Source: Escherichia coli
Lineage (GTDB): Bacteria; Pseudomonadota; Gammaproteobacteria; Enterobacterales; Enterobacteriaceae
Assembly (NCBI RefSeq): GCF_041886205.1
Contig: NZ_CP169029.1
DNA length: 64,000 nt
Direction: 5' to 3' (one strand)
Numbering within the stretch: the first letter of the stretch is position 1; each line of letters begins with the position of its first letter. A program made the position numbers and the translations under genes. Positions 28,975 through 56,706 of this stretch are shown piece by piece. The notes under the pieces were generated by a model. It was not told the origin of the DNA. It saw nothing but the letters and a program-made list of their open reading frames with translations, and did no database searches.

Positions 28975-30012
28975 TTAACGCTTATCCGCCACCAGTTTGA
29001 GCGCGTGTTCCAGCACATTAATGTCTGCACCCGCTTTATGGGCATTTTCACTTAAATAACGCCGCCACTGCCGCGCGCCAGGAATACCCTGGAACAAGCC
29101 CAACATATGCCGGGTAATATGACCGAGATACGTCCCCTGGCTGAGTTCACGCTCAATGTACGGATACATGGCGCGCACTACCGCCACCGGATCGGCATCG
29201 ATATCCGAGGAACCAAAGATCTCCCGGTCTACCGCCGCCAGAATACCCGGATTCTGATACGCCTCGCGCCCGACCATCACGCCATCCATATGTTGCAGGT
29301 GTGCTTTGGCCTCTTCCAGCGACTTGATACCACCGTTAATCGACATTGTCAGATGCGGAAAGTCACGCTTCAGTTGATACACACGCGGATAATCGAGCGG
29401 CGGGATCTCACGGTTTTCTTTCGGACTTAACCCCGAAAGCCAGGCTTTACGTGCATGGATGATGAACATCTCACACTCGCCTTTGCCGGAAACGGTGTTG
29501 ATGAAATCGCAGAGAAATTCATAGCTGTCCTGGTCGTCGATGCCAATACGCGTTTTCACCGTCACCGGAATCGACACCACATCGCGCATCGCTTTCACGC
29601 AGTCGGCAACCAGCTGCGCATTACCCATCAGACACGCACCAAACATGCCGTTCTGCACCCGGTCAGACGGGCAGCCGACATTCAGGTTGATCTCATCATA
29701 TCCACGCGCTTCTGCCAGCTTCGCACACTGCGCCAGCGCCGCCGGATCGCTACCGCCGAGTTGCAACGCTACCGGATGTTCTTCTTCACTATACGCCAGG
29801 TAATCACCTTTACCGTGAATAATCGCCCCTGTAGTTACCATTTCAGTATACAGCAACGTATTGCGGGAAAGCAGACGCAAGAAATAGCGGCAATGTCTGT
29901 CCGTCCAGTCGAGCATAGGAGCAATGCTAAACCGAGAATTCCAGTAAACACCAGTTTTTTCAGGCATCACGCTGGTTTGATTAATTTTTTGTGTTTCATG
30001 ATTATCGTGCAT
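28975..30012 (-). CDS. dusA: tRNA-dihydrouridine synthase A DusA; 5' end abuts the prophage integrase
   Basis: Dus-family TIM-barrel flavoenzyme; alternative start at 29967 would give 330 aa; the extreme 5' end is probably supplied by the integrated element. Confidence 0.9.
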
Positions 30013-30100: not shown

Positions 30101-31198
30101 ATGGCGTACTATAACATAGAGAAACGACTAAAATCCGATGGCACACCACGCTATCGCTGTAATGTGATTATCAAAGAAAAAGGTGTTATCACTTACAGGG
30201 AAAGCAAAACATTCCCTAAACATGCTCATGCCAAAACATGGGGCACACAGAAAGTGATGGAATTAGATCTATATGGCATTCCATCATCAAATGCAGTTGA
30301 CGGACTTACAGTCCGTGACTTACTACACAAATATTTAAATGACCCAAATGCCGGAGGTAAAGCAGGCCGTACTAAAAGATATGTGCTAGAACTGCTTATG
30401 GATAGTGACATCTCCGCGATCAAACTATCTGAACTGACAGAAAATGACGTAATTGAACATTGCAGGCTAAGAAACAACGCTGGCGCAGGTCCAGCAACAG
30501 TCAGCCACGATGTTAGTTATCTTGGTAGTGTTCTGGATGCGGCCAAACCTGTATACGGAATTAATTACACATCAAACCCGGCGAAAAGTGCTCGTCCATA
30601 TCTACTTAAACTTGGTTTGATTGGTAAATCAAACCGTCGTAATCGTAGACCAGCATCTGATGAACTGGACATGCTCATTGAAGGCCTTCAACAACGATCT
30701 ACTCATAAATGCTCAAAAATTCCGTTCGTTGATATCCTCAAATTTTCTGTGTGGTCCTGTATGCGAATCGGAGAAGTATGCCGGTTACGATGGGAAGATC
30801 TCGACCAGGAACAAAAATCTATACTCGTAAGAGACAGGAAAGATCCACGCAAAAAGGAAGGCAACCACATGAAAGTAGCCTTGCTTGGGGAAGCCTGGGA
30901 TATCGTCCAACGACAGCCCCAAAAATCGGAATTCATTTTTCCATATAACAGCACTTCTGTTACTGCGGGATTTCAGAGAGTAAGAAGCAAATTAGGTATT
31001 AAGGATCTGCGATACCATGATTTGCGTAGAGAAGGGGCAAGTCGCTTATTTGAGGCTGGTTTTAGTATTGAGGAAGTCGCCCAGGTTACAGGGCATCGTT
31101 CATTAAACGTGCTATGGCAGGTATATACCGAACTGTATCCGAAATCTTTACATAATCGTTTTGAAGAGCTCCAAAGGAGCAGAAATAAGATCCCTTGA
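30101..31198 (+). CDS. int: Tyrosine site-specific integrase (dusA-targeting type)
   Basis: 365-aa ORF with C-terminal catalytic region (HDLRREGASR ... LWQVYTELY); first phage gene next to the dusA 5' end. Confidence 0.8.
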   Translation: MAYYNIEKRLKSDGTPRYRCNVIIKEKGVITYRESKTFPKHAHAKTWGTQKVMELDLYGIPSSNAVDGLTVRDLLHKYLNDPNAGGKAGRTKRYVLELLMDSDISAIKLSELTENDVIEHCRLRNNAGAGPATVSHDVSYLGSVLDAAKPVYGINYTSNPAKSARPYLLKLGLIGKSNRRNRRPASDELDMLIEGLQQRSTHKCSKIPFVDILKFSVWSCMRIGEVCRLRWEDLDQEQKSILVRDRKDPRKKEGNHMKVALLGEAWDIVQRQPQKSEFIFPYNSTSVTAGFQRVRSKLGIKDLRYHDLRREGASRLFEAGFSIEEVAQVTGHRSLNVLWQVYTELYPKSLHNRFEELQRSRNKIP

Positions 31199-31731: not shown

Positions 31732-32788
31732 GGCTTTGTTGAATAAATCAGATTTCGGGTAAGTCTCCCCCGTAGCGGGTTGTGTTTTCAGGCAATACGC
31801 ACGCTTTCAGGCATACCTGCTTTCGTCATTTTGTTCAGCGCTCGTACCAGGGCCATAGCCTCTGCAACCTGACCATCGTAGTCACGCAGCGTCAGTGAAC
31901 CCCCGAACAGCTGTTTTACCCGGTACATCGCCGTTTCCGCTATCGAGCGACGGTTGTAATCTGTTGTCCATTTCCACCGCGCATTACTCCCGGTCATTCG
32001 CTGATTAGCCACTGCACGGTTACGGTCTGCATATTCACCGGGCCAGTAACCCGCACCTTTTCGGGGAGGGATAAGCGCGCTGATTTTCTTACGCCGCAGT
32101 TCATCGTGACATAGCCGGGTATCGTAAGCGCCATCGGCGGCGGCTGACCTGATTTTCCGGTGGGTTTGCCGGATTAACCCGGGGAAGGCCTCTGAGTCCG
32201 TAACGTTGTTCAGCGACAGGTCAGCGCAGATGATTTCATGTGTTTTACTGTCAACGGCGAGATGCAGCTTACGCCAGATACGGCGGCGTTCCTGGCCATG
32301 CTTTTTGACTTTCCACTCGCCTTCACCGAAGACCTTCAGCCCGGTGGAATCAATTACCAGGTGTGCGATTTCACCCCGGGTGGGCGTTTTGAAACTGACA
32401 TTAACCGACTTTGCCCGCCTGCTGACACAGCTGTAATCCGGGCAGCGTAGCGGAACGTTCATCAGAGAAAAAATGGAATCAATAAAGCCCTGCGCAGCGC
32501 GCAGGGTCAGCCTGAATACGCGTTTAATGACCAGCACAGTCGTGATGGCAAGGTCAGAATAGCGCTGAGGTCTGCCTCGTGAAGAAGGTGTTGCTGACTC
32601 ATACCAGGCCTGAATAGCTTCATCATCCAGCCAGAAAGTTATGGAGCCACGGTTGATGAGGGCTTTATTGTAGGTGGGCCAGTTGGTGATTTTGAACTTT
32701 TGCTTTGCCACGGAACGGTCTGCGTTGTCGGGAAGATACGTGATCTGATCCTTCAACTCAGCAAAAGTTCGATTTATTCAACAAAGCC
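31732..32788. mobile_element. IS903-group insertion sequence (IS5 family), 1057 bp, apparently intact
   Basis: 18-bp terminal inverted repeats ggctttgttgaataaatc (31732-31749) and gatttattcaacaaagcc (32771-32788); flanked by 9-bp direct target duplication gtgctttgg (31723-31731 and 32789-32797). Confidence 0.9.
31788..32756 (-). CDS. IS903-group DDE transposase
   Basis: 322-aa ORF filling the IS; motif DSTGLKVFGEGEWKVKKHG typical of IS903/IS102 transposases; true start may be internal. Confidence 0.85.
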   Translation of the reverse strand: MKDQITYLPDNADRSVAKQKFKITNWPTYNKALINRGSITFWLDDEAIQAWYESATPSSRGRPQRYSDLAITTVLVIKRVFRLTLRAAQGFIDSIFSLMNVPLRCPDYSCVSRRAKSVNVSFKTPTRGEIAHLVIDSTGLKVFGEGEWKVKKHGQERRRIWRKLHLAVDSKTHEIICADLSLNNVTDSEAFPGLIRQTHRKIRSAAADGAYDTRLCHDELRRKKISALIPPRKGAGYWPGEYADRNRAVANQRMTGSNARWKWTTDYNRRSIAETAMYRVKQLFGGSLTLRDYDGQVAEAMALVRALNKMTKAGMPESVRIA

Positions 32789-32843: not shown

Positions 32844-33848
32844 ATGCAAGATACAGACGTTTACGTATACATAGGCGATGTTCACCGCTCTGGTCATCAC
32901 GACATCACCAAAGCGATTAAAGAAAGAAAAACTAACCATGGTTTACAAAAAAATGTTCTTTTTTGCGTCGCTACCTATGGCGGTGATCCCAGCGCAGGAT
33001 ATAGAATTGGCCGCGCTTTGCAACACAACTATGAACACATCACCGTTCTAGTTGTTGGCCCTTGCAAAAGTGCTGGAACCTTGATGGCTGTCGCCGCTCA
33101 TAAGCTCGTGATTGGTGATATGGGTGAGCTTGGTCCTCTAGACATCCAACTTAAGAAAAATGATGAGATCGGCGAATTGAGCTCGGGCCTTGTTATCGCA
33201 ACGGCGATTGATGAAATAAAAGAGTGCGCTATTTCGACCTTTAGATCATACGTACTTGATATAAAGTACAGAAACCAAATTAGCACGAAGATGTCTGCAG
33301 ATATTGCTGCTAAGCTTACTGAAGCAATCATATCGCCGATGGCCTCACAGATAGACCCCATCAAACTCGGGGAGCATCAACGAGCAATGAACATAGCGCT
33401 TTCCTATGGGGAGCGTTTGAATAGTCACTCGAAAAATCTTAAGGAAAGCTCCTTAGGCAAGTTGATCGCTGGATATCCAGCCCATGGTTTTGTGATAGAC
33501 CGTAAAGAGGCGAGGGAACTATTCAACCATGTTGAGAGTCCTACAGACTTTGCAGCCAACCTGTACGAAGTTCTTGGTGAGATGATTTCGTCAGGCGAAA
33601 TCTCTATCTTCGACAAACCGGTGATTAAAGATTTAACTCCTAAAAAACAATATGAAACAACTAACGCAGAGGAAGATTCCCATGACAACAGCAGAATTCA
33701 GGAAGGAGATGAAATCTCTGACCAAAATTCAGGAAGAGCAGAACCGCCAAGGGATGAACCTGTCCAGGGAAGCGATGGAAAACATGCGGAAATTGAAGAA
33801 GAGGCTGGAACCTTACCAGCAGAGCAACCAGATGAAGGCACTCAGTGA
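32844..33848 (+). CDS. Orphan ClpP/crotonase-fold serine peptidase-like protein (S49/SDH-like) with acidic low-complexity C-terminal tail
   Basis: 334-aa AT-rich ORF with SD (aggga) 8 bp upstream; core ...VATYGGDPSAGYRIGRAL...VVGPCKSAGTLMAVAAHKLVIGDMGELGPLD resembles Clp-fold peptidases; last ~70 aa rich in E/D/Q; family assignment from memory only. Confidence 0.55.
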   Translation: MQDTDVYVYIGDVHRSGHHDITKAIKERKTNHGLQKNVLFCVATYGGDPSAGYRIGRALQHNYEHITVLVVGPCKSAGTLMAVAAHKLVIGDMGELGPLDIQLKKNDEIGELSSGLVIATAIDEIKECAISTFRSYVLDIKYRNQISTKMSADIAAKLTEAIISPMASQIDPIKLGEHQRAMNIALSYGERLNSHSKNLKESSLGKLIAGYPAHGFVIDRKEARELFNHVESPTDFAANLYEVLGEMISSGEISIFDKPVIKDLTPKKQYETTNAEEDSHDNSRIQEGDEISDQNSGRAEPPRDEPVQGSDGKHAEIEEEAGTLPAEQPDEGTQ

Positions 33849-34280: not shown

Positions 34281-34844
34281 TTATTTCGTTTGAATGCCAG
34301 TAACAGGAAATCGTTTATATAGGGTTGATAGCCCAACGTTATAGATACGTGCAACATAACGCCGTGATTTCCCTGCCGCTATGAGCGCTCCCATCTGTTG
34401 CCACTGCTCGTCGCTAAACTTCGGTCTACGCCCACCAATCCGGCCTTTGGATCTGGCAATAGCCAAACCAGCTAAAGTTCGCTCGCTATTCAAATCAGAT
34501 TCATACTGCGCAGCAGAAAGAATATTACGGAAATTATAGCGACCACTTGCTGTTTTCAGGTCTACACCATCTGTAATACTCCGAAAATTAACGCCTTTTT
34601 CGTGCAGATTTTGAAACATCAATAGCGCATGTAGCACATTTCTCCCTATCCGATCTAGCTTCCAGACAATCAACTCATCTCCACTTTTCATCACCGAAAT
34701 TAATTCCTTTAACACAGGGCGATTAGCTGTTCTGCCACTGGCATATTCTTCATAAATTCGCTCACAGCCAGCTGACTCAAGTGCAAGACGTTGCAACTCT
34801 GTATCCTGATGATTTGTTGATACACGAACATACCCGTAAATCAT
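34281..34844 (-). CDS. Serine DNA invertase (Pin/Gin/Hin/Cin family)
   Basis: N-terminus MIYGYVRVSTNHQDTELQ with catalytic Ser, resolvase domain, C-terminal HTH (GLSTLYKRF); adjacent to invertible tail-fibre segment. Confidence 0.9.
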   Translation of the reverse strand: MIYGYVRVSTNHQDTELQRLALESAGCERIYEEYASGRTANRPVLKELISVMKSGDELIVWKLDRIGRNVLHALLMFQNLHEKGVNFRSITDGVDLKTASGRYNFRNILSAAQYESDLNSERTLAGLAIARSKGRIGGRRPKFSDEQWQQMGALIAAGKSRRYVARIYNVGLSTLYKRFPVTGIQTK

Positions 34845-34903
34845 GAGTGCTTCTCCTGTTGTAAAAACAGGAGAAGAGGCGAAATATCACCTGATTCAGA
34901 AAA

Positions 34904-34929
34904 ATATTTGAAAGGTTGGTTTGGGAGAA
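34904..34929. promoter_or_regulatory. Left crossover site of the invertible tail-fibre segment
   Basis: Contains ttggtttgggagaag (34916-34930), inverted copy of cttctcccaaaccaa at 36813-36827; half-site resembles gix half TTATCCAAAACC. Confidence 0.65.
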
Positions 34930-35415
34930 GGCTCAGCGTTACCCGTTGGTGTGCCTGTTCCGTGGCCTTCAGCCACACCACCAACAGGCTGGCTGAAATG
35001 CAACGGTGCACCTTTTTCTGCCGAAGAGTACCCAAAACTGGCAAAGGCTTACCCAAAGTTAAAATTACCGGATTTGCGCGGTGAGTTTATTCGCGGGTGG
35101 GATGATGGGCGAGGTGTTGATTCCGCGAGACTGCTGCTTTCAAGTCAGGCAGCATCTATCCTTGAACATAACCATGAAATGCATGGATGGACAGGGAACC
35201 CACTCATGGCTAGAGATGTTGGTGAATTAGGTACATCATCCGTATTTGCGGTGCAGTTGAGCATTGGCGATGGCGGGTTATTGTATTCGTGGAAGGATGG
35301 GAGTGGAACAACAAATGACAGTAAACGAATGGATAGAACAAATCATGTCAGTTCCGGCGCCGGTGATGGTAGCCCGCGAAACATTGCATTTAACTACATT
35401 GTGAGGGCTGCATAA
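34921..35415 (+). CDS. Alternative (currently unexpressed) tail-fibre C-terminal variable domain
   Basis: Frame opens exactly at the left crossover site with no ATG (ORF-track M is TTG); encodes tail-collar-like receptor-binding domain. Confidence 0.7.
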   Translation: MGEGSALPVGVPVPWPSATPPTGWLKCNGAPFSAEEYPKLAKAYPKLKLPDLRGEFIRGWDDGRGVDSARLLLSSQAASILEHNHEMHGWTGNPLMARDVGELGTSSVFAVQLSIGDGGLLYSWKDGSGTTNDSKRMDRTNHVSSGAGDGSPRNIAFNYIVRAA

Positions 35416-36018
35416 ATGGAACAGGCTATTTTGGGAAAAGACGGTTACGCTTTAAATGATGGGGAAATCATCGTACATAACTATGATGGCGAAACGCGGG
35501 AATATATTTCTACATCAACTGAATATCTCGCTGTCGGAGTCGGTATCCCGGCATGTTCCTGTCTGGATGCACCAGGTACACATAAAGCTGGTTATGCAAT
35601 CTGTCGCTCTGTAGATTTAAATTCATGGGAATATGTGCCAGACCATCGCGGTGAAACGGTCTATAGCACCAAAACAGGAGAATCAAAAGAAATCACCGCT
35701 CCGGGTGATTACCCTGAAAATACAACCACTATCGCCCCATTAACGCCATACGATAAATGGGATGGTGAGAAATGGGTGACCGATACTGAGGCACAGCATA
35801 GCGCCGCAGTAGACGCGGCAGAAGCACAGCGCCAGTCACTGATTGATGCTGCAATGGCTTCCATTAGTCTGATTCAACTGAAATTGCAGGCCGGACGTAA
35901 ACTGACGCAGGCAGAAACAACCAGACTTAACGCTGTGCTGGATTACATTGACGCGGTGACGGCAACAGATACCAGCACCGCGCCGGATGTCATCTGGCCT
36001 GAACTGCCGGAGGCGTAG
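35416..36018 (+). CDS. Tail-fibre assembly chaperone (Tfa) for the alternative fibre
   Basis: 200 aa with conserved Tfa C-terminus LNAVLDYIDAVTATDTSTAPDVIWPELP. Confidence 0.75.
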   Translation: MEQAILGKDGYALNDGEIIVHNYDGETREYISTSTEYLAVGVGIPACSCLDAPGTHKAGYAICRSVDLNSWEYVPDHRGETVYSTKTGESKEITAPGDYPENTTTIAPLTPYDKWDGEKWVTDTEAQHSAAVDAAEAQRQSLIDAAMASISLIQLKLQAGRKLTQAETTRLNAVLDYIDAVTATDTSTAPDVIWPELPEA

Positions 36019-36442
36019 GCCATTCAATATCTGGCGCACTGGAGGTATCAACCAGCTCCAGTGCATCCAGATAATCCAGCCACAAATTATATTGCGCCAG
36101 TTCCTCACCTTTCAGACGACCAATAGCGGCTTTACCGGGCCATTGCTTACTGTTCATGTATTCGTTGGCCTGGTTAATTAGTAGCTGTCTTTCTGATTCA
36201 GTAATTTCAATAAGCTCTTCATGCGTGGGTGGAGGAATATCTGCCCACGCAGGCAGCCCATCATCTCCGGCAATACGGATTTTTCCTTGTGGCGGTTCAG
36301 CCATAAACTCACTGATAATATTTTGATTTACTTCCTTAGCGTCTGATAAATCCCATCCCTCTGATTTATATTTATCAATCATATCCACAGGGAAAAAAGC
36401 ATTATGCCTTGCGCTATAAACATATTCGTTCATATAAATCAC
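35990..36442 (-). CDS. Tail-fibre assembly chaperone (Tfa) for the currently expressed fibre
   Basis: 150 aa, C-terminus LWLDYLDALELVDTSSAPDIEWPTPP; converges on the other tfa. Confidence 0.75.
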   Translation of the reverse strand: MIYMNEYVYSARHNAFFPVDMIDKYKSEGWDLSDAKEVNQNIISEFMAEPPQGKIRIAGDDGLPAWADIPPPTHEELIEITESERQLLINQANEYMNSKQWPGKAAIGRLKGEELAQYNLWLDYLDALELVDTSSAPDIEWPTPPAVQAR

Positions 36443-50812: not shown

Positions 50813-52064
50813 CGTTTTTTGGGGGCTTAAAATCTCCTGCCGGGTTAGCAGCGTTCACGCTTACCAGCATCTCATCCAGCCCTTCAACCGGATTCATATC
50901 CTCGAATGCGCGGGCCTCATTACGGCTCATCCATCCATCGGTAATAGCGAAGTGATAGAATTGCGCGCGCTCCTGCGGAGTTCCGCGTAAAAGCCCCGTC
51001 AGATTGAACCTGACGTAATACCCGGCGGCTAACTCAGCGCGGGTAAACAAGCGACGGTTAAGCTCCTGCTCCCAGTTCGTCACCCACGGCATCATCGTGT
51101 AGCGGACAAACTGAATCGCCTGCGCAGAAATATTGGAGAAGGTGGCTTTTTCGAGGTCATTAATCATGTGCGCAGGAATATTGAAAATACCGGCAATCAT
51201 TGAACGGTTCAGTTTCATCATGTCAATGATCTGAGCGTCAACTGGCGACACAGTCAGTGCCTTGTAATCCAGATCGGCTGGCAGCAGCATGGTTTTGTTT
51301 TCCTGGCGGCGTAACGCCTGCGATGCCTTCTGCCACTGATCTTTAAGCCAGCCCCAGCTTTCCTTATTGAGTCCGCTTTTAACGGATACTATCCCCGCCG
51401 GACGGGCATTACCGCTGAAGAAGCTTTCTGTGTACTTCTGACCGCTCATCCCCATGCCTATTGTTTCGGCATGTTGCATAATCGGACTCAGCCCCATCTT
51501 CTGATTATTACCCAGCGCACGGATGTGGATCATATCGTCCGGACTGATCGCAAACGCCCCATATTCGTTGTACAAACCGTAGGTATATCGGCCACCAGTA
51601 TTCATCAGCGTCGTTTCCCACGGCATACAGCAATCCAGGGATATGACTTCACCGCGACGATTACGTTTCACCCAGGTATACCCATTCCCCCAGCCAAGGA
51701 TGTGACGTTGCTTCAGTTCGCGCCATTTGTAGCTGGTTTGCCAGGTATTGGGCTCATCATGAACCAGATAAAACGCCGGATGATCGCGTGCGGGTTCAAC
51801 CTTCCCCTTGTGCCTGCGCATAACATGCAACGGCATCTGGGCAAGGCTGGAAGACAGGACATAGATACAGGAATACACCGCAGCCAGTTTCATCGCAGTC
51901 TCAGGACTGACATAAACGTCTGCCCGGAACAGCCCATCAGTATCAACGGCATCACCGGTTATCGGGGTGGAAGGATTCTCCAGTGATTTACTTCTGAACA
52001 GAGCATCAAGCAGCACGCGTCCCCCTTCTGGCCATAGCCAGTGCGCCCACCAGCAGTAAAGCAC
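50790..52064 (-). CDS. Portal protein (HK97 family)
   Basis: 424 aa; between terminase and protease. Confidence 0.75.
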   Translation of the reverse strand: MLYCWWAHWLWPEGGRVLLDALFRSKSLENPSTPITGDAVDTDGLFRADVYVSPETAMKLAAVYSCIYVLSSSLAQMPLHVMRRHKGKVEPARDHPAFYLVHDEPNTWQTSYKWRELKQRHILGWGNGYTWVKRNRRGEVISLDCCMPWETTLMNTGGRYTYGLYNEYGAFAISPDDMIHIRALGNNQKMGLSPIMQHAETIGMGMSGQKYTESFFSGNARPAGIVSVKSGLNKESWGWLKDQWQKASQALRRQENKTMLLPADLDYKALTVSPVDAQIIDMMKLNRSMIAGIFNIPAHMINDLEKATFSNISAQAIQFVRYTMMPWVTNWEQELNRRLFTRAELAAGYYVRFNLTGLLRGTPQERAQFYHFAITDGWMSRNEARAFEDMNPVEGLDEMLVSVNAANPAGDFKPPKNDEGKTNE

Positions 52065-52163
52065 CGGACAAAATCAGAGCCGGAGCCATACCAAACTGCA
52101 GGTAAACCCCGCACGTAAGCAGGCCAAAACCAGCCAGCCCGATAACATCAGCAATTAGTGATT

Positions 52164-53897
52164 TCATAGAATTAAGAGATCATCGTCCGGATCAAGAGAT
52201 GAGAGGAAATCGTCAGGTTCTTTGAGCATTGCCCGACCGATCGTCATAATCAGTGCAACCGCACCATCGATTTTGTTTTCCGCCTGCTCCTTGACGGGCT
52301 TCACTAAATCATCGTTACCTGGCATGTTTTTGCCGACCACATTACCGATACACCAGGTCATGATGGGATTGCCGTCATGATGAAAGCGTCCCGATTCAAT
52401 CGCTGCTTCCAGCTCTTTCATCGGATCGGACATATTGGCGAAGTTCTGGACGATAGTGACGGGATTCAGATCTTCATCAGCAAGGTCATGTGACAGCCCG
52501 GTCGCCCCGAAGGGGTCGATGGGTGACTCACTGACCGGGCTGATTTTGTTCGCCGCTTTGGCCTCCTCGAGGATGTAGCGATAATCCACCTCTGCACCAT
52601 CGGTAACGGTCAGGACGCCCATTTCCACCCATTTCTGAAAGCGTTCGGCTGTCCGTCTATCTTCATTTTTCTCGACGCTGTACACCGTGTCATACGGTAC
52701 CCAGAAGCGCGGGGCCACACTGTAGTAATGCGTTTTACCGTCAATCTCGCGGGTATAAAGTCGCGCCATGCTGTTCATATCCAGCTTACGCGCCAGGTCA
52801 AAGGCCAGAATGCACGGCTGCCCCTCGAACTGCTCAAGGGTCAGTGATTTATCCTCGCAGCTCTGCCAGCTCACCAGGTTGAAATACGCCGAACGCGCCG
52901 ACACCCAGATATTGAGGTGTTTTGTTTTAAAGACGTTTGCCAGACGGGCGTTATTTTTCGCACGCTGCTGCTGACTTAACAAAAATTCGCGATAAACCGA
53001 CACGCCAATATTTGGATTGGCTTTTTCCAGCACCTGCGGGTCGGTCCAGTCGTCACCTTCATCAACGGTATAGATGATCCCGAACAGTTCATCGTTAGGC
53101 ACCGAGCCGTTGAGCATCTCGATGACTTCCCGCCGCTTGTCGTAGCACGGCCCCTCAATGTTGTACCCGGCGGTGGTGATGGCCCACATCAGTGGCTGAC
53201 GTCGCGCCCCCATCCCTGTAAGCATTGTGGTATAAAGCGCATCGGTGGCGTGCTCGTGATATTCATCAACCACGGCACAGTGGGGTGATGAACCATCACC
53301 GGGATTGCCGATCAGCGGTTCAAACCGCGCGCCATCCTCCGGACGGTTCATGTTTGAGGCGTTAACCTCAATCCCGAACGCTTCCGTCAGCATGGGTGTG
53401 CGTTTACACATCAGTCGCGCCGGGCGAAAGACTTCCCACGCCTGTTTCTCTGTCGTGGCACCGGAATACACTTCCGCGCCAAACTCGTTATCACAGGCAA
53501 AACAATACAGGGCAACACCGGCAGAGATTGCTGATTTGCCGTTCTTACGGGGGATTTCGGTGTACACCTCCCGGAAGCGGCGCAACCGGGTGCCTTTATT
53601 GACCCAGCCAAACGCACAGCAGATCACAAATAGCTGCCACGGCTCCAGCGTGATGGGCATCCGTTTGAATGCCCACTCCCCCTTGGTGTGCGGCAACAGC
53701 TGAATAAATTTCGCAGCCCGTTCAGCCAGGTCCTTATCGAAGCGGTAACGAAACGACTTACTTTTTTCCGCCATCAGGTCATCAAGATGGCGCTGGCAGG
53801 CCTGAATCACAAACTGGCAGGCAACAATCTTTCCGCGCACGACATCCCGGGCATACTGATTGGCAGCATTTACGTTGGGGTAAGATTTCCGGCTCAT
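52164..53897 (-). CDS. Terminase large subunit
   Basis: 577 aa with N-terminal ATPase and C-terminal nuclease regions; coupled to small subunit. Confidence 0.85.
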
Positions 53898-54397
53898 GAC
53901 TCGATGATTTTCAGAAACGGGTTAGTGGCTTTCTTCTGCCCCGCCAGGCCAATCAGACGCTGGCGGCTGCTGGGGTCGAGTCCGAGCATTGCCCCCGTGC
54001 TGCTCATCTCGGACTCCTGTTCTTTCTTGGCGGTCAGCTCCGGGTTTTTGACCCTGCCGCCCATTGCACCGGTAATGGTGTTGCCCTGGCTGGCAATATT
54101 TTTCACGGCACGTCGCCAGAACTCATAGGCCACGCACCACCGCTCAAGCACCGCGAGGTCAGTCACGCACAGCAGGCCCTGACCGCAGAGTTCTTTGGTT
54201 GTCAGTTGCCACATGATCGTGGCGAGAGGGAGATCTTCTTCAGCGAACCATTCCGGTGGCTCAACACCTTTGATGGGCGTAAAAACAGGTTCATCTTTAT
54301 TCAGGGCTCGCTTGCCGGGGTTTCCGGCCAGCGCCTTGCGCGCCGTTGGCTTGGGGCGACGCCCGGAACGCCCCGCCGTTCCAGCCATATGCGGCAC
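53894..54397 (-). CDS. Terminase small subunit (P27-like)
   Basis: 167-aa basic ORF directly upstream of and overlapping large subunit. Confidence 0.7.
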
Positions 54398-54514
54398 TCC
54401 TGGTTAAATTTCATTTTTCGCGGGTATAAAAAAACGATGGGGCGGGCAGTCCGGAAGACGTCAGGTCACAGGGATTTGACCCGCCCCTCCCTCACAGACA
54501 GTTGAGAATTATTA

Positions 54515-54865
54515 TCACTTTAACCGTTCACGGGCCGTCTTCGCCTTATGGCAGGGCCAGCACAGACTCTGCAGATTACTGTCGGCATCAGTGCCGCCAT
54601 GCGCTTTAGGGATGATGTGGTCAACGGTTTTCGCCTCGCGCACCACACCAGCACGCAAACACAACTGACACAGGCCTTTGTCACGCTTCAGTACTCGCAC
54701 CCGGATACCGTCCCACTTCGAACCATAACCACGCTGATGGCGGGACTGGCCCGACTTGTATTGCTTCCAGCCCTCGCTTTTGTGGCTTTCGCAGTAGCCT
54801 GACGGGTCAGTCGTGGTATTGCGGCAGCCGCGAACACGGCAGGCTTTTGGGATTCGAGGAGGCAT
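54515..54865 (-). CDS. HNH endonuclease (packaging-associated)
   Basis: 116 aa with zinc-finger cysteines and HNH core (VDHIIPKAHGGTDADSNLQSLCWPCH); immediately upstream of terminase genes. Confidence 0.85.
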   Translation of the reverse strand: MPPRIPKACRVRGCRNTTTDPSGYCESHKSEGWKQYKSGQSRHQRGYGSKWDGIRVRVLKRDKGLCQLCLRAGVVREAKTVDHIIPKAHGGTDADSNLQSLCWPCHKAKTARERLK

Positions 54866-54891: not shown

Positions 54892-55164
54892 CTATTTGCC
54901 TGCTGCCAGCAAAGCGTTACGGCGCATCTCGATACTTCGAATTCCCGCTTTGTCAATATTGCATTGTCCCAACGCTGACAACAGACTCACATTCAACTCC
55001 AGACTGGCACCATACGTCAGCGGATTGGGTATAAACGGTACAGGAGTATCAGAAGTCAGGCTGGCTGGCAGTGGTGCCACCGGAACGCTCACGTAAACCG
55101 TTCGCGAATTTCCGCAACCGGTCAGCAGCGGCAGCAGGCACAGGACGTGAAGCACAATCATCAT
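54892..55164 (-). CDS. Outer-membrane spanin lipoprotein (Rz1-like), embedded out of frame in Rz
   Basis: Frame starting MMIVLHVLCLLPLLTGC with lipobox LTGC; Pro-rich mature part; overlaps i-spanin gene. Confidence 0.6.
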   Translation of the reverse strand: MMIVLHVLCLLPLLTGCGNSRTVYVSVPVAPLPASLTSDTPVPFIPNPLTYGASLELNVSLLSALGQCNIDKAGIRSIEMRRNALLAAGK

Positions 55165-55441
55165 CCGCAACAGCCACTTTGATATCTTCCTGGGTTCTCT
55201 GTGACTCCAGTGCGATCTGCTGTTTTGCATGTTGATTCGCCTCCTGAATGATGTTCGTTATTGCCATAGTACGCAGAACATTCGCGGTGATAGCCTCAGT
55301 AGAATCAGCTCGCTGTTCCGCAGCGTCAGCACGCTTCTGTTCCTTCAGAAACTTTCCGTGGTAGTGATTAGCTGACCAGACAAGACCACCAGCAATACAA
55401 GCAATAAACGTTAAAATGAGCGCCCAATAACTCATCTTCAT
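55049..55441 (-). CDS. Inner-membrane spanin (Rz-like)
   Basis: 130 aa, N-terminal TM helix then coiled-coil periplasmic domain; follows endolysin. Confidence 0.7.
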   Translation of the reverse strand: MKMSYWALILTFIACIAGGLVWSANHYHGKFLKEQKRADAAEQRADSTEAITANVLRTMAITNIIQEANQHAKQQIALESQRTQEDIKVAVADDDCASRPVPAAAADRLRKFANGLRERSGGTTASQPDF

Positions 55442-56052
55442 ACCAGCAGCGCCGCCCGCGCCTTGTTGTATCGAACCTTACGATCCTCAATACCGTTCAG
55501 ACCGCCGTTAATGATGCGCGTAACACGATTAATATCAGCACCGTAGACCATGCAGCCTTTAGAGGTGTAGAACCATGCAGCTGAGCGCGCGGCCTGTAGC
55601 TCCTGCTCCAGTTGTTCAGGTGAGGTCACCAGATCTAACTTCAGCGCCGCGCCACAGATGCGATAATTATGAAGGCCAGTGATTTGAATTAATCCTCTAC
55701 CACGATATTTCCAGCCATCACCGGGTGCTTTGTTACCCAGTCGGTTGCTATACACCAGATTGGCAATAGCATCCTGACGAGCTGCATGTCCGGATGTTCT
55801 GCCAAGGGCATCAGCCTGCTGCTGTGTGATCCTCTTTCCGAACGTCGCCACCAGCGCAGATGGTGTGTAGTTAAAATTTTCAACTACGGCGCTAAACCCC
55901 ATCGACTCATGGCCTACCTGAGCGATAAACATTGCCTGATCCGCTGGTGCTGTAATGCCGAATTCCTTCATCGCCGCATCAATGTGCGGAAACCAGCGCG
56001 CAGCCAGCCCGGCGCTAATACCAGCCGCCTTTTGAAATAATTGTTGGTTCAT
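55438..56052 (-). CDS. Endolysin (GH19 chitinase-like lysozyme)
   Basis: 204 aa; motifs FIAQVGHESMGF and KYRGRGLIQITG; lysis cassette context. Confidence 0.75.
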   Translation of the reverse strand: MNQQLFQKAAGISAGLAARWFPHIDAAMKEFGITAPADQAMFIAQVGHESMGFSAVVENFNYTPSALVATFGKRITQQQADALGRTSGHAARQDAIANLVYSNRLGNKAPGDGWKYRGRGLIQITGLHNYRICGAALKLDLVTSPEQLEQELQAARSAAWFYTSKGCMVYGADINRVTRIINGGLNGIEDRKVRYNKARAALLV

Positions 56053-56333
56053 TAGTGCCTCAGATGATCAACCAGACGTGCAACGTTGCCTCTGACGGCC
56101 ACCAGCACGGAAAGAAAAATAGTGTTCGCCACGATAATGGGCCATGAGGAATGAGGATAAATCCCACAGAGATAGGCCAACGGAACAGCACTGTATGTAA
56201 CAGTAATCAGCCAGGCTAAACGTGAAACCCAAGGACGATGCCGCGAATCACCACGACGATAAAACATCAGAGTAATAACAACACAAGCACATAACAGCGC
56301 ATTTATAGTTGCTGTCGGGTCATTTAGCTCCAC
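56052..56333 (-). CDS. Small membrane protein (holin/antiholin candidate)
   Basis: 93 aa, 2-3 predicted TM helices, between holin-like gene and endolysin. Confidence 0.5.
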   Translation of the reverse strand: MELNDPTATINALLCACVVITLMFYRRGDSRHRPWVSRLAWLITVTYSAVPLAYLCGIYPHSSWPIIVANTIFLSVLVAVRGNVARLVDHLRH

Positions 56334-56706
56334 CTGAACCTCCCCGGCGCGTTATGAGCGCCACCAGCGAGCCGATATCCTGATTATTCAGGAACGTCAG
56401 GATCTTAACGGCTAAAGCAGAGACGATTACGGCACCAATAGCATCCAGAGGTTTATCACTGTATCCGGTCAAGTTCGCCAGCTTGGAGCCAACCAACCCA
56501 GAGCAAAGAATCCCGGCAATATATGACACGATAAAATATGCCAGTCGGCGCGATGCACTCAGATCTGCTGCTGTTGCTATGTAGAATACAGCCCCTGCAA
56601 ATGCGCCAAATACAACGCCGTAATCAGTTCCGGTCAGCAGTCCATAAACACTGGCACCCGTCAGGGCACCACCAGCCAGCCCAGTACCGGAAATCGGATC
56701 GGACAT
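56320..56706 (-). CDS. Holin-like membrane protein
   Basis: 128 aa Gly/Ala-rich with 3 hydrophobic helices; first gene of lysis cassette. Confidence 0.55.
   Translation of the reverse strand: MSDPISGTGLAGGALTGASVYGLLTGTDYGVVFGAFAGAVFYIATAADLSASRRLAYFIVSYIAGILCSGLVGSKLANLTGYSDKPLDAIGAVIVSALAVKILTFLNNQDIGSLVALITRRGGSGGAK

Follow-up and report, generated by a model that had tools for sequence, protein, structure and literature searches.

A probable cos site between the HNH endonuclease and small-terminase genes of an SfV/SfI/P27-type prophage in dusA

The window analysed here, a 64-kb stretch of Escherichia coli DNA taken as a whole, carries a prophage whose late operon is transcribed from the minus strand. 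According to its open reading frames and their Pfam matches, this operon runs from the lysis genes through the HNH endonuclease gene, a spacer, and the small- and large-terminase genes to the portal, S78 prohead protease and HK97-fold major capsid genes, the last three lying 3' of the large-terminase gene on the same strand (Table 1). The host genes alr, dnaB, a quinone-oxidoreductase-like gene and dusA (28975-30012) lie at the prophage end, together with a tyrosine integrase gene (30101-31198), and thus place the integration at dusA. The end of the window (position 64000) falls within the prophage early region. In a Megablast search, the region matched the Shigella phages SfV, SfI, SfII and SfIV as well as ST64B at 93-98% identity, and a 99.4%-identical stretch with identical PGAP product names is present in E. 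coli EC17CM13. The packaging module itself is widespread; it was found in 1306 of 5426 complete E. coli genomes, i.e., in about a quarter of them.

Table 1. Late-region genes and elements of the probable cos site in the window. Signed positions are counted from the cut.
Feature	Coordinates	Strand	Remarks
Two holin-like ORFs	56320-56706 and 56052-56333	-	
GH19 endolysin	55438-56052	-	
Rz-like ORF with embedded Rz1/LysC gene	55049-55441 and 54892-55230	-	
HNH endonuclease gene, 116 aa	54515..54865	-	Pfam HNH, E 2.2e-16
Intergenic region, probable cos region, HNH stop to small-terminase ATG, 126 bp	54389..54514	-	
Upstream box GGGGCGGG-TCAAATC, -49..-35, candidate cos subsite	54473..54487	-	
Cohesive-end 10-mer 5'-TGCCCGCCCC-3', one arm of the inverted repeat	54439..54448	-	Identical to the SfI virion-end gap
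T7 tract, +5..+11, just inside the packaged left end	54428..54434	-	
Predicted small-terminase binding site ACCCGCGAAAAATGAAATTTAA, +14..+35	54404..54425	-	Inferred
Small-terminase Shine-Dalgarno AGGAG	54401-54397	-	Start ATG at 54388-54386
Small-terminase gene, P27 family, 164 aa	53894..54388	-	Pfam Terminase_4, E 1.1e-20
Large-terminase gene, 577 aa, ATPase and RNase-H-like nuclease domains	52164..53897	-	Pfam TerL_ATPase and TerL_nuclease

Several other features of the prophage were recorded alongside the packaging genes. A second HNH-like nuclease, a DUF968 protein of 331 aa with a weak HNHc_6 match, is encoded at 57960-58955 on the minus strand, between a KilA-N gene and a Q-like antiterminator gene; it is unrelated to the packaging HNH. 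A replication-initiator-like gene (60989-61990, HTH_36) contains a tandem array at 61558-61681, with a 15-nt unit repeated 8.3 times (or a 30-nt unit 4.1 times), that encodes a DPSKSDASKS repeat; these units are probably origin iterons, like those of lambdoid O genes. Closer to the integrase, a serine recombinase gene (Resolvase and HTH_7, 34281-34844) adjoins oppositely oriented tail-fibre and tail-fibre-assembly ORFs, and the segment as a whole (34281-36442) resembles invertible host-range segments such as Mu G or e14 P. The interval between the integrase and this tail-fibre invertase contains a DDE transposase gene (31788-32756) and an ORF (32844-33848) whose ClpP-like SDH-protease match is below threshold. 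Finally, the reading frame at 52006-52167 on the minus strand has a counterpart annotated as a hypothetical protein at the equivalent place in E. coli EC17CM13 and phage F1055.

A first-pass annotation had described the HNH gene as adjoining the terminase genes in the arrangement of HK97, and both statements hold. The ORF, its strand and coordinates, and the Pfam HNH, Terminase_4 and TerL domains agree with the description, and the proteins themselves are related to those of HK97. In a phmmer search against the PDB, the large terminase matched the HK97 large terminase 6z6d over residues 80-556 (E 2.6e-26) and is clearly a homologue of HK97 gp2, while the HNH protein is homologous to HK97 gp74 (38% identity over the core, E 4e-11). 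Among closer relatives, its identity amounts to 95.7% with SfV orf53, 94.8% with the SfI protein, 93% with that of Salmonella phage F1055 and 80% with phiP27 L34. The HNH protein aligns end to end with the solved HNH nuclease of phage GVE2 (5h0m). It possesses an N-terminal zinc ribbon (C9, C14, C25, H28) followed by the HNH core (C66-x2-C69, D82-H83, N97, C102-x2-C105, H106), in which both the catalytic His-Asn-His motif (H83, N97, H106) and the zinc site (C66/C69/C102/C105) are intact; H83, N97, C102 and H106 are invariant in HNH alignment A1, gp74 included. This domain layout is that of "Group 1" as defined by Xu & Gupta.

The gene also has a fixed position. An HNH ORF lies directly upstream in all 80 IMG/VR loci that carry the window's small terminase, and the order HNH, small terminase, large terminase recurs in HK97, phiP27, SfI, SfV, ST64B, EPP-1 and Klebsiella phages. 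The intergenic spacer that follows the HNH gene, given as 117 bp in the first-pass annotation, is real but longer than stated. The shorter length (54398-54514) applies only with a mechanically chosen GTG start at 54397, which overlaps the Shine-Dalgarno sequence, whereas the ATG at 54388 is the start annotated in SfV, SfI and the E. coli PGAP annotation. The ATG is therefore the credible start, giving a spacer of 126 bp. The small terminase read from it is 98.2% identical to the small terminases of SfV and SfI.

Evidence for the interpretation of this spacer comes from phage SfI. Run-off sequencing of SfI virion DNA, compared with the prophage, revealed a 10-nt gap, 5'-TGCCCGCCCC-3', and its authors concluded that SfI packages from cos rather than pac (PMC3636060). 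The same 10-mer occurs in the window on the minus strand at 54448..54439, as a single copy; no second cos copy was found within the 64 kb. Around the cut (-55 to +50), only 4 of 105 bp differ between the window and SfI. With the four bases preceding it, the element reads GGAC-TGCCCGCCCC (54452..54439, minus strand), lies between the HNH and P27-family small-terminase genes and fits the pattern GGAC + YGCCCGCCCC. Among the 80 IMG/VR loci with the window's small terminase, 77 contain exactly TGCCCGCCCC and 79 the T/CGCCCGCCCC form. Database records of other phages point to the same ten bases: the misc_feature "cos-site" of the phiP27 record, CGCCCGCCCC, aligns to the same ten columns as the window 10-mer, and the record ends of SfI, linear HK97 and Edwardsiella phage EPP-1 break at one alignment column, again that of the window 10-mer. 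The outcomes that the first-pass annotation had named as refuting a packaging site here, namely virion ends elsewhere or headful packaging, have thus in effect been looked for in the near-identical SfI, where defined cos ends lie at the identical 10-mer (PMC3636060).

Judging from the sequence, the minus strand would be nicked between 54439 and 54438 and the plus strand between 54448 and 54449, leaving 10-nt 3' overhangs. A gap in run-off reads implies a recessed 5' end on each template strand and thereby 3' overhangs, in agreement with HK97, whose ends are 10-nt 3' overhangs (PMC9410871, Figure 1 legend; PMC11331095); by analogy, the phage of the window would have the same polarity. PMC9410871 is inconsistent about the length of the HK97 overhang, with 10 nt in the legend of Figure 1 and 12 nt in the Discussion, while PMC11331095 has 10 nt. 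Some Sf-phage records start elsewhere. Those of SfV (NC_003444) and SfIV (NC_022749) begin 7 nt upstream of the 10-mer, corresponding to window position 54455, and that of SfII (NC_021857) begins right after the HNH stop codon. Cos packaging in SfV was called "postulated" by the SfI authors (PMC3636060), and the linear form of the SfIV sequence was made by its authors from an assembly that was circular; for these reasons, the record starts of SfV and SfIV were considered and rejected as mapped virion ends. The SfII record boundary is not taken as a virion end either.

For the conservation of the region, 48 distinct sequences were aligned: the window, 39 IMG/VR variants and eight phages (SfI, ST64B, EPP-1, phiP27, two Klebsiella phages, F1055 and HK97). 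A conserved block extends from about 54493 to 54389, i.e., from GAGGGGAGGGGCGGG-TCAAATC to the small-terminase start; it is preceded by ~20 bp of variable sequence that follow the HNH stop. Inside the packaged left end, the SfV-like, phiP27, Klebsiella, EPP-1 and F1055 sequences retain a run of five or more T residues. After this tract, ACCCGCG-AAAAATGAAATTTAA occupies +14..+35 and is nearly invariant wherever the window's small terminase occurs. In HK97, the small terminase binds +15..+29, CTAACCCGATTTTTT, recognising the C:G pair at position 21 together with the shape of the A-tract beside it (PMC11331095). The small terminase of the window showed no sequence similarity to HK97 gp1 in BLASTP, phmmer, a 31-sequence profile against the PDB, or Pfam; fold comparison was the only comparison to yield anything (Foldseek E = 1). 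The HK97 binding-site model is therefore carried over by fold and position only, and binding of the small terminase to the +14..+35 block in the HK97 manner is proposed by analogy. In Salmonella phage F1055, this block is changed, and the upstream half of cos and the HNH gene are kept. The F1055 record (OP745618) has a mosaic joint at the cohesive end: from the 10-mer on, the small terminase is a different member of the P27 family, and the large terminase reaches only 58% identity. In addition, the small-terminase gene is interrupted by the record boundary and is annotated as a 55-aa fragment.

Upstream of the cut, the conserved block opens with the G-run and TCAAATC motif listed in Table 1 as the upstream box. 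"AAATC" and part of the G-run are invariant in all 48 sequences, HK97 included, in which the counterpart is GGGGGGGG-ATCAAATC at -50..-35; the G-run also marks the start of the invariant block in 74 distinct HK97-like loci. No function is given to this box in the HK97 and SfI/SfIV literature consulted. An IHF site within TCAAATC was considered and set aside, as the by-eye comparison with WATCAANNNNTTR was poor in both HK97 and the window. That the box (54487-54473) is a functional cos subsite is a tentative suggestion, somewhat more doubtful than not. The box is common to the HK97 and SfV/P27 groups at an equal distance, although their small terminases no longer resemble each other in sequence. 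If real, the subsite would be recognised by a host factor or by a partner that has stayed conserved, such as the large terminase, the HNH protein or the portal. Its role could then be comparable to that of lambda cosQ, i.e., ending packaging or placing the second nick. The shared box could serve as a starting point for mutagenesis in the HK97 model system.

The feature that first drew attention to the spacer was a pair of inverted elements, gggcggg ... cccgccc, which the first-pass annotation had suggested might belong to the packaging site. The pair is real: GGGGCGGG at 54439-54446 and CCCGCCCC at 54480-54487 form an 8-nt inverted repeat with 100% complementarity, separated by 33 nt, and no other such pair exists in the spacer. 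The suggestion holds insofar as the "gggcggg" arm belongs to the cohesive end, identical to that of SfI; the symmetry is not the signal, as the arms vary independently, and the cut, correctly placed in the spacer, would be staggered around one arm and not between the two. Of 2000 mononucleotide-shuffled spacers, 137 (~7%) contained a perfect 8-nt inverted repeat, as did 243 (~12%) of 2000 117-nt segments drawn at random from the window. The repeat was thus rejected as a significant signal by itself, and significance rests on the comparison with mapped phage ends rather than on symmetry. The second arm is the G-run of the upstream box (-49..-42), so that the symmetry looks, from the sequence, incidental to two GC-rich boxes, the cohesive end and the upstream G-run box.

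Alternatively, the repeat could act in RNA, as a hairpin with a U-run located where the lysis/HNH transcript ends, functioning there in intrinsic termination or RNA stability and with no packaging role. The minus strand does read GGGGCGGG...CCCGCCCC with TTTTTTT 4 nt further on, and the minimum-free-energy fold pairs both arms; however, the loop measures 33 nt, a terminator scan called no site here, and the RNA fold energy is not better than that of shuffles (z = -0.53). The arms differ in 10 of the 48 aligned sequences (EPP-1, Klebsiella, HK97 and IMG/VR variants), all of which lose pairs, retaining 3-7 of the 8, with 0 compensatory changes. This lack of covariation implies that the hairpin is not selected. 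Furthermore, the head genes downstream of the repeat share the late operon, and the CCCGCCCC arm is already explained as a mapped cohesive end. An RNA hairpin was therefore rejected as highly improbable. A similarly slight probability attaches to the idea that the HNH gene is selfish, encoding a free-standing homing endonuclease, and is a chance neighbour of the terminase genes with no part in packaging. Its orthologue is annotated "homing endonuclease" in several phage records, HNH is a common homing-nuclease fold, and HNH proteins of the packaging type, when purified, show little or no specificity in nicking DNA (PMC3592412; PMC12967558). A homing gene would nevertheless be sporadic among close relatives, and the fixed position in 80 of 80 loci argues against such an element, as do the synteny across genera (HK97, phiP27, ST64B, EPP-1 and Klebsiella phages), the homology with gp74, described in PMC9410871 as a stimulator of terminase cos cleavage, and the essential role of a homologous arrangement in sk1 (PMC12967558). 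Least probable of all is headful (pac) packaging with the GC-rich elements as bystanders. Although some Shigella serotype-converting phages, such as Sf6 and SfX, do package from pac, their terminases are unrelated, and the window encodes a large terminase of the HK97 cos type; SfI, whose small terminase is 98% identical, has defined ends, and phiP27 has an annotated cos-site.

Taken together, the spacer between the HNH and small-terminase genes is very probably the cos site of an SfV/SfI/P27-type temperate phage, with a Mu-like contractile tail and an HK97-like head and packaging module, integrated in dusA. This reading combines observations on the window, i.e., the gene assignments, the exactly matching 10-mer and the conserved surroundings, with properties demonstrated in relatives, i.e., the virion ends of SfI and the gp74-stimulated cos cleavage of HK97. 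HK97 gp74 was reported (PMC9410871) to stimulate terminase cleavage at cos in a reconstituted system, and the packaging HNH of Skunavirus sk1 (HrdP) is essential (PMC12967558). By homology with both proteins, the HNH of the window would aid, or be needed for, terminase cleavage at cos. In one proposal (PMC11331095; PMC12967558), terminase and packaging HNH each nick one strand.

A packaging cycle can be proposed on this basis. Following induction, replication would generate concatemers, and the small terminase would bind just inside the left end, probably at the ACCCGCG-A-tract (54425-54404), positioning the large terminase over GGAC-TGCCCGCCCC. Two nicks 10 nt apart (minus strand 54439/54438, plus strand 54448/54449) would then be made jointly by the nuclease of the large terminase and the HNH protein, producing 10-nt 3' cohesive ends, and packaging would proceed from the small-terminase gene onward to the next cos.

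From the perspective of prophage annotation, the cos of a prophage type carried by roughly one in four complete E. coli genomes would thereby be placed to the base, at 54439-54448. The start of the small terminase has been corrected, and the eye-catching repeat appears as two independent boxes, not a hairpin. Exact ends help to predict what such prophages package and to interpret records that start elsewhere, such as those of SfV, SfIV and SfII.

Among known systems, the closest are the Shigella phages SfI, SfV, SfII and SfIV (cos 5'-TGCCCGCCCC-3'). Like the window, they have the order HNH, cos, P27-type small terminase and large terminase, with 95-96% identity in the HNH and 98% in the small terminase; the 10-mer is identical, the surrounding 105 bp contain 3-4 mismatches, and the ends of SfI were mapped experimentally. 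Conversely, the prophage of the window occupies the dusA site with its own integrase, whereas the Shigella Sf phages use thrW next to proA, and its lysis cassette, with the GH19 endolysin, differs in part from theirs. PhiP27, the Stx2e phage after which the P27 family of small terminases is named, is also similar, with an 80%-identical HNH, the "cos-site" CGCCCGCCCC in the same columns and then the small terminase; it shares with the window the G-run-TCAAATC box, the T-tract and the CCCGCG-A-tract after the cut. It differs in its small terminase (only 46% identical), in the first base of the 10-mer (C instead of T) and in the rest of its genome.

HK97 (gp74, gp1, gp2) differs in several respects: the small terminases are without detectable sequence similarity, its cohesive end is CGCCGCCAAA, and its HNH-to-cos distance is ~320 bp, compared with ~66 bp in the window. 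In addition, the N-terminal zinc ribbon is absent from gp74, which carries CxxC/CxxH in place of the [CxxC]2 of the window's HNH. The zinc ribbon, CxxxxC...CxxH, and the [CxxC]2 HNH core are instead common to the Group 1 zinc-ribbon HNH nicking endonucleases (Xu & Gupta 2013; GVE2 HNH, PDB 5h0m), the genes of which also adjoin cos and terminase genes; identity with these enzymes is nonetheless only ~30%, and they belong to phages of Gram-positive bacteria, with nicking sites that are short and defined. Thus, the arrangement in the window is the known HK97-type cos module and the site is the known cos of SfI and phiP27, both of which are already described; possibly new is the box at a fixed distance from the cut that is common to the HK97 and P27 groups.
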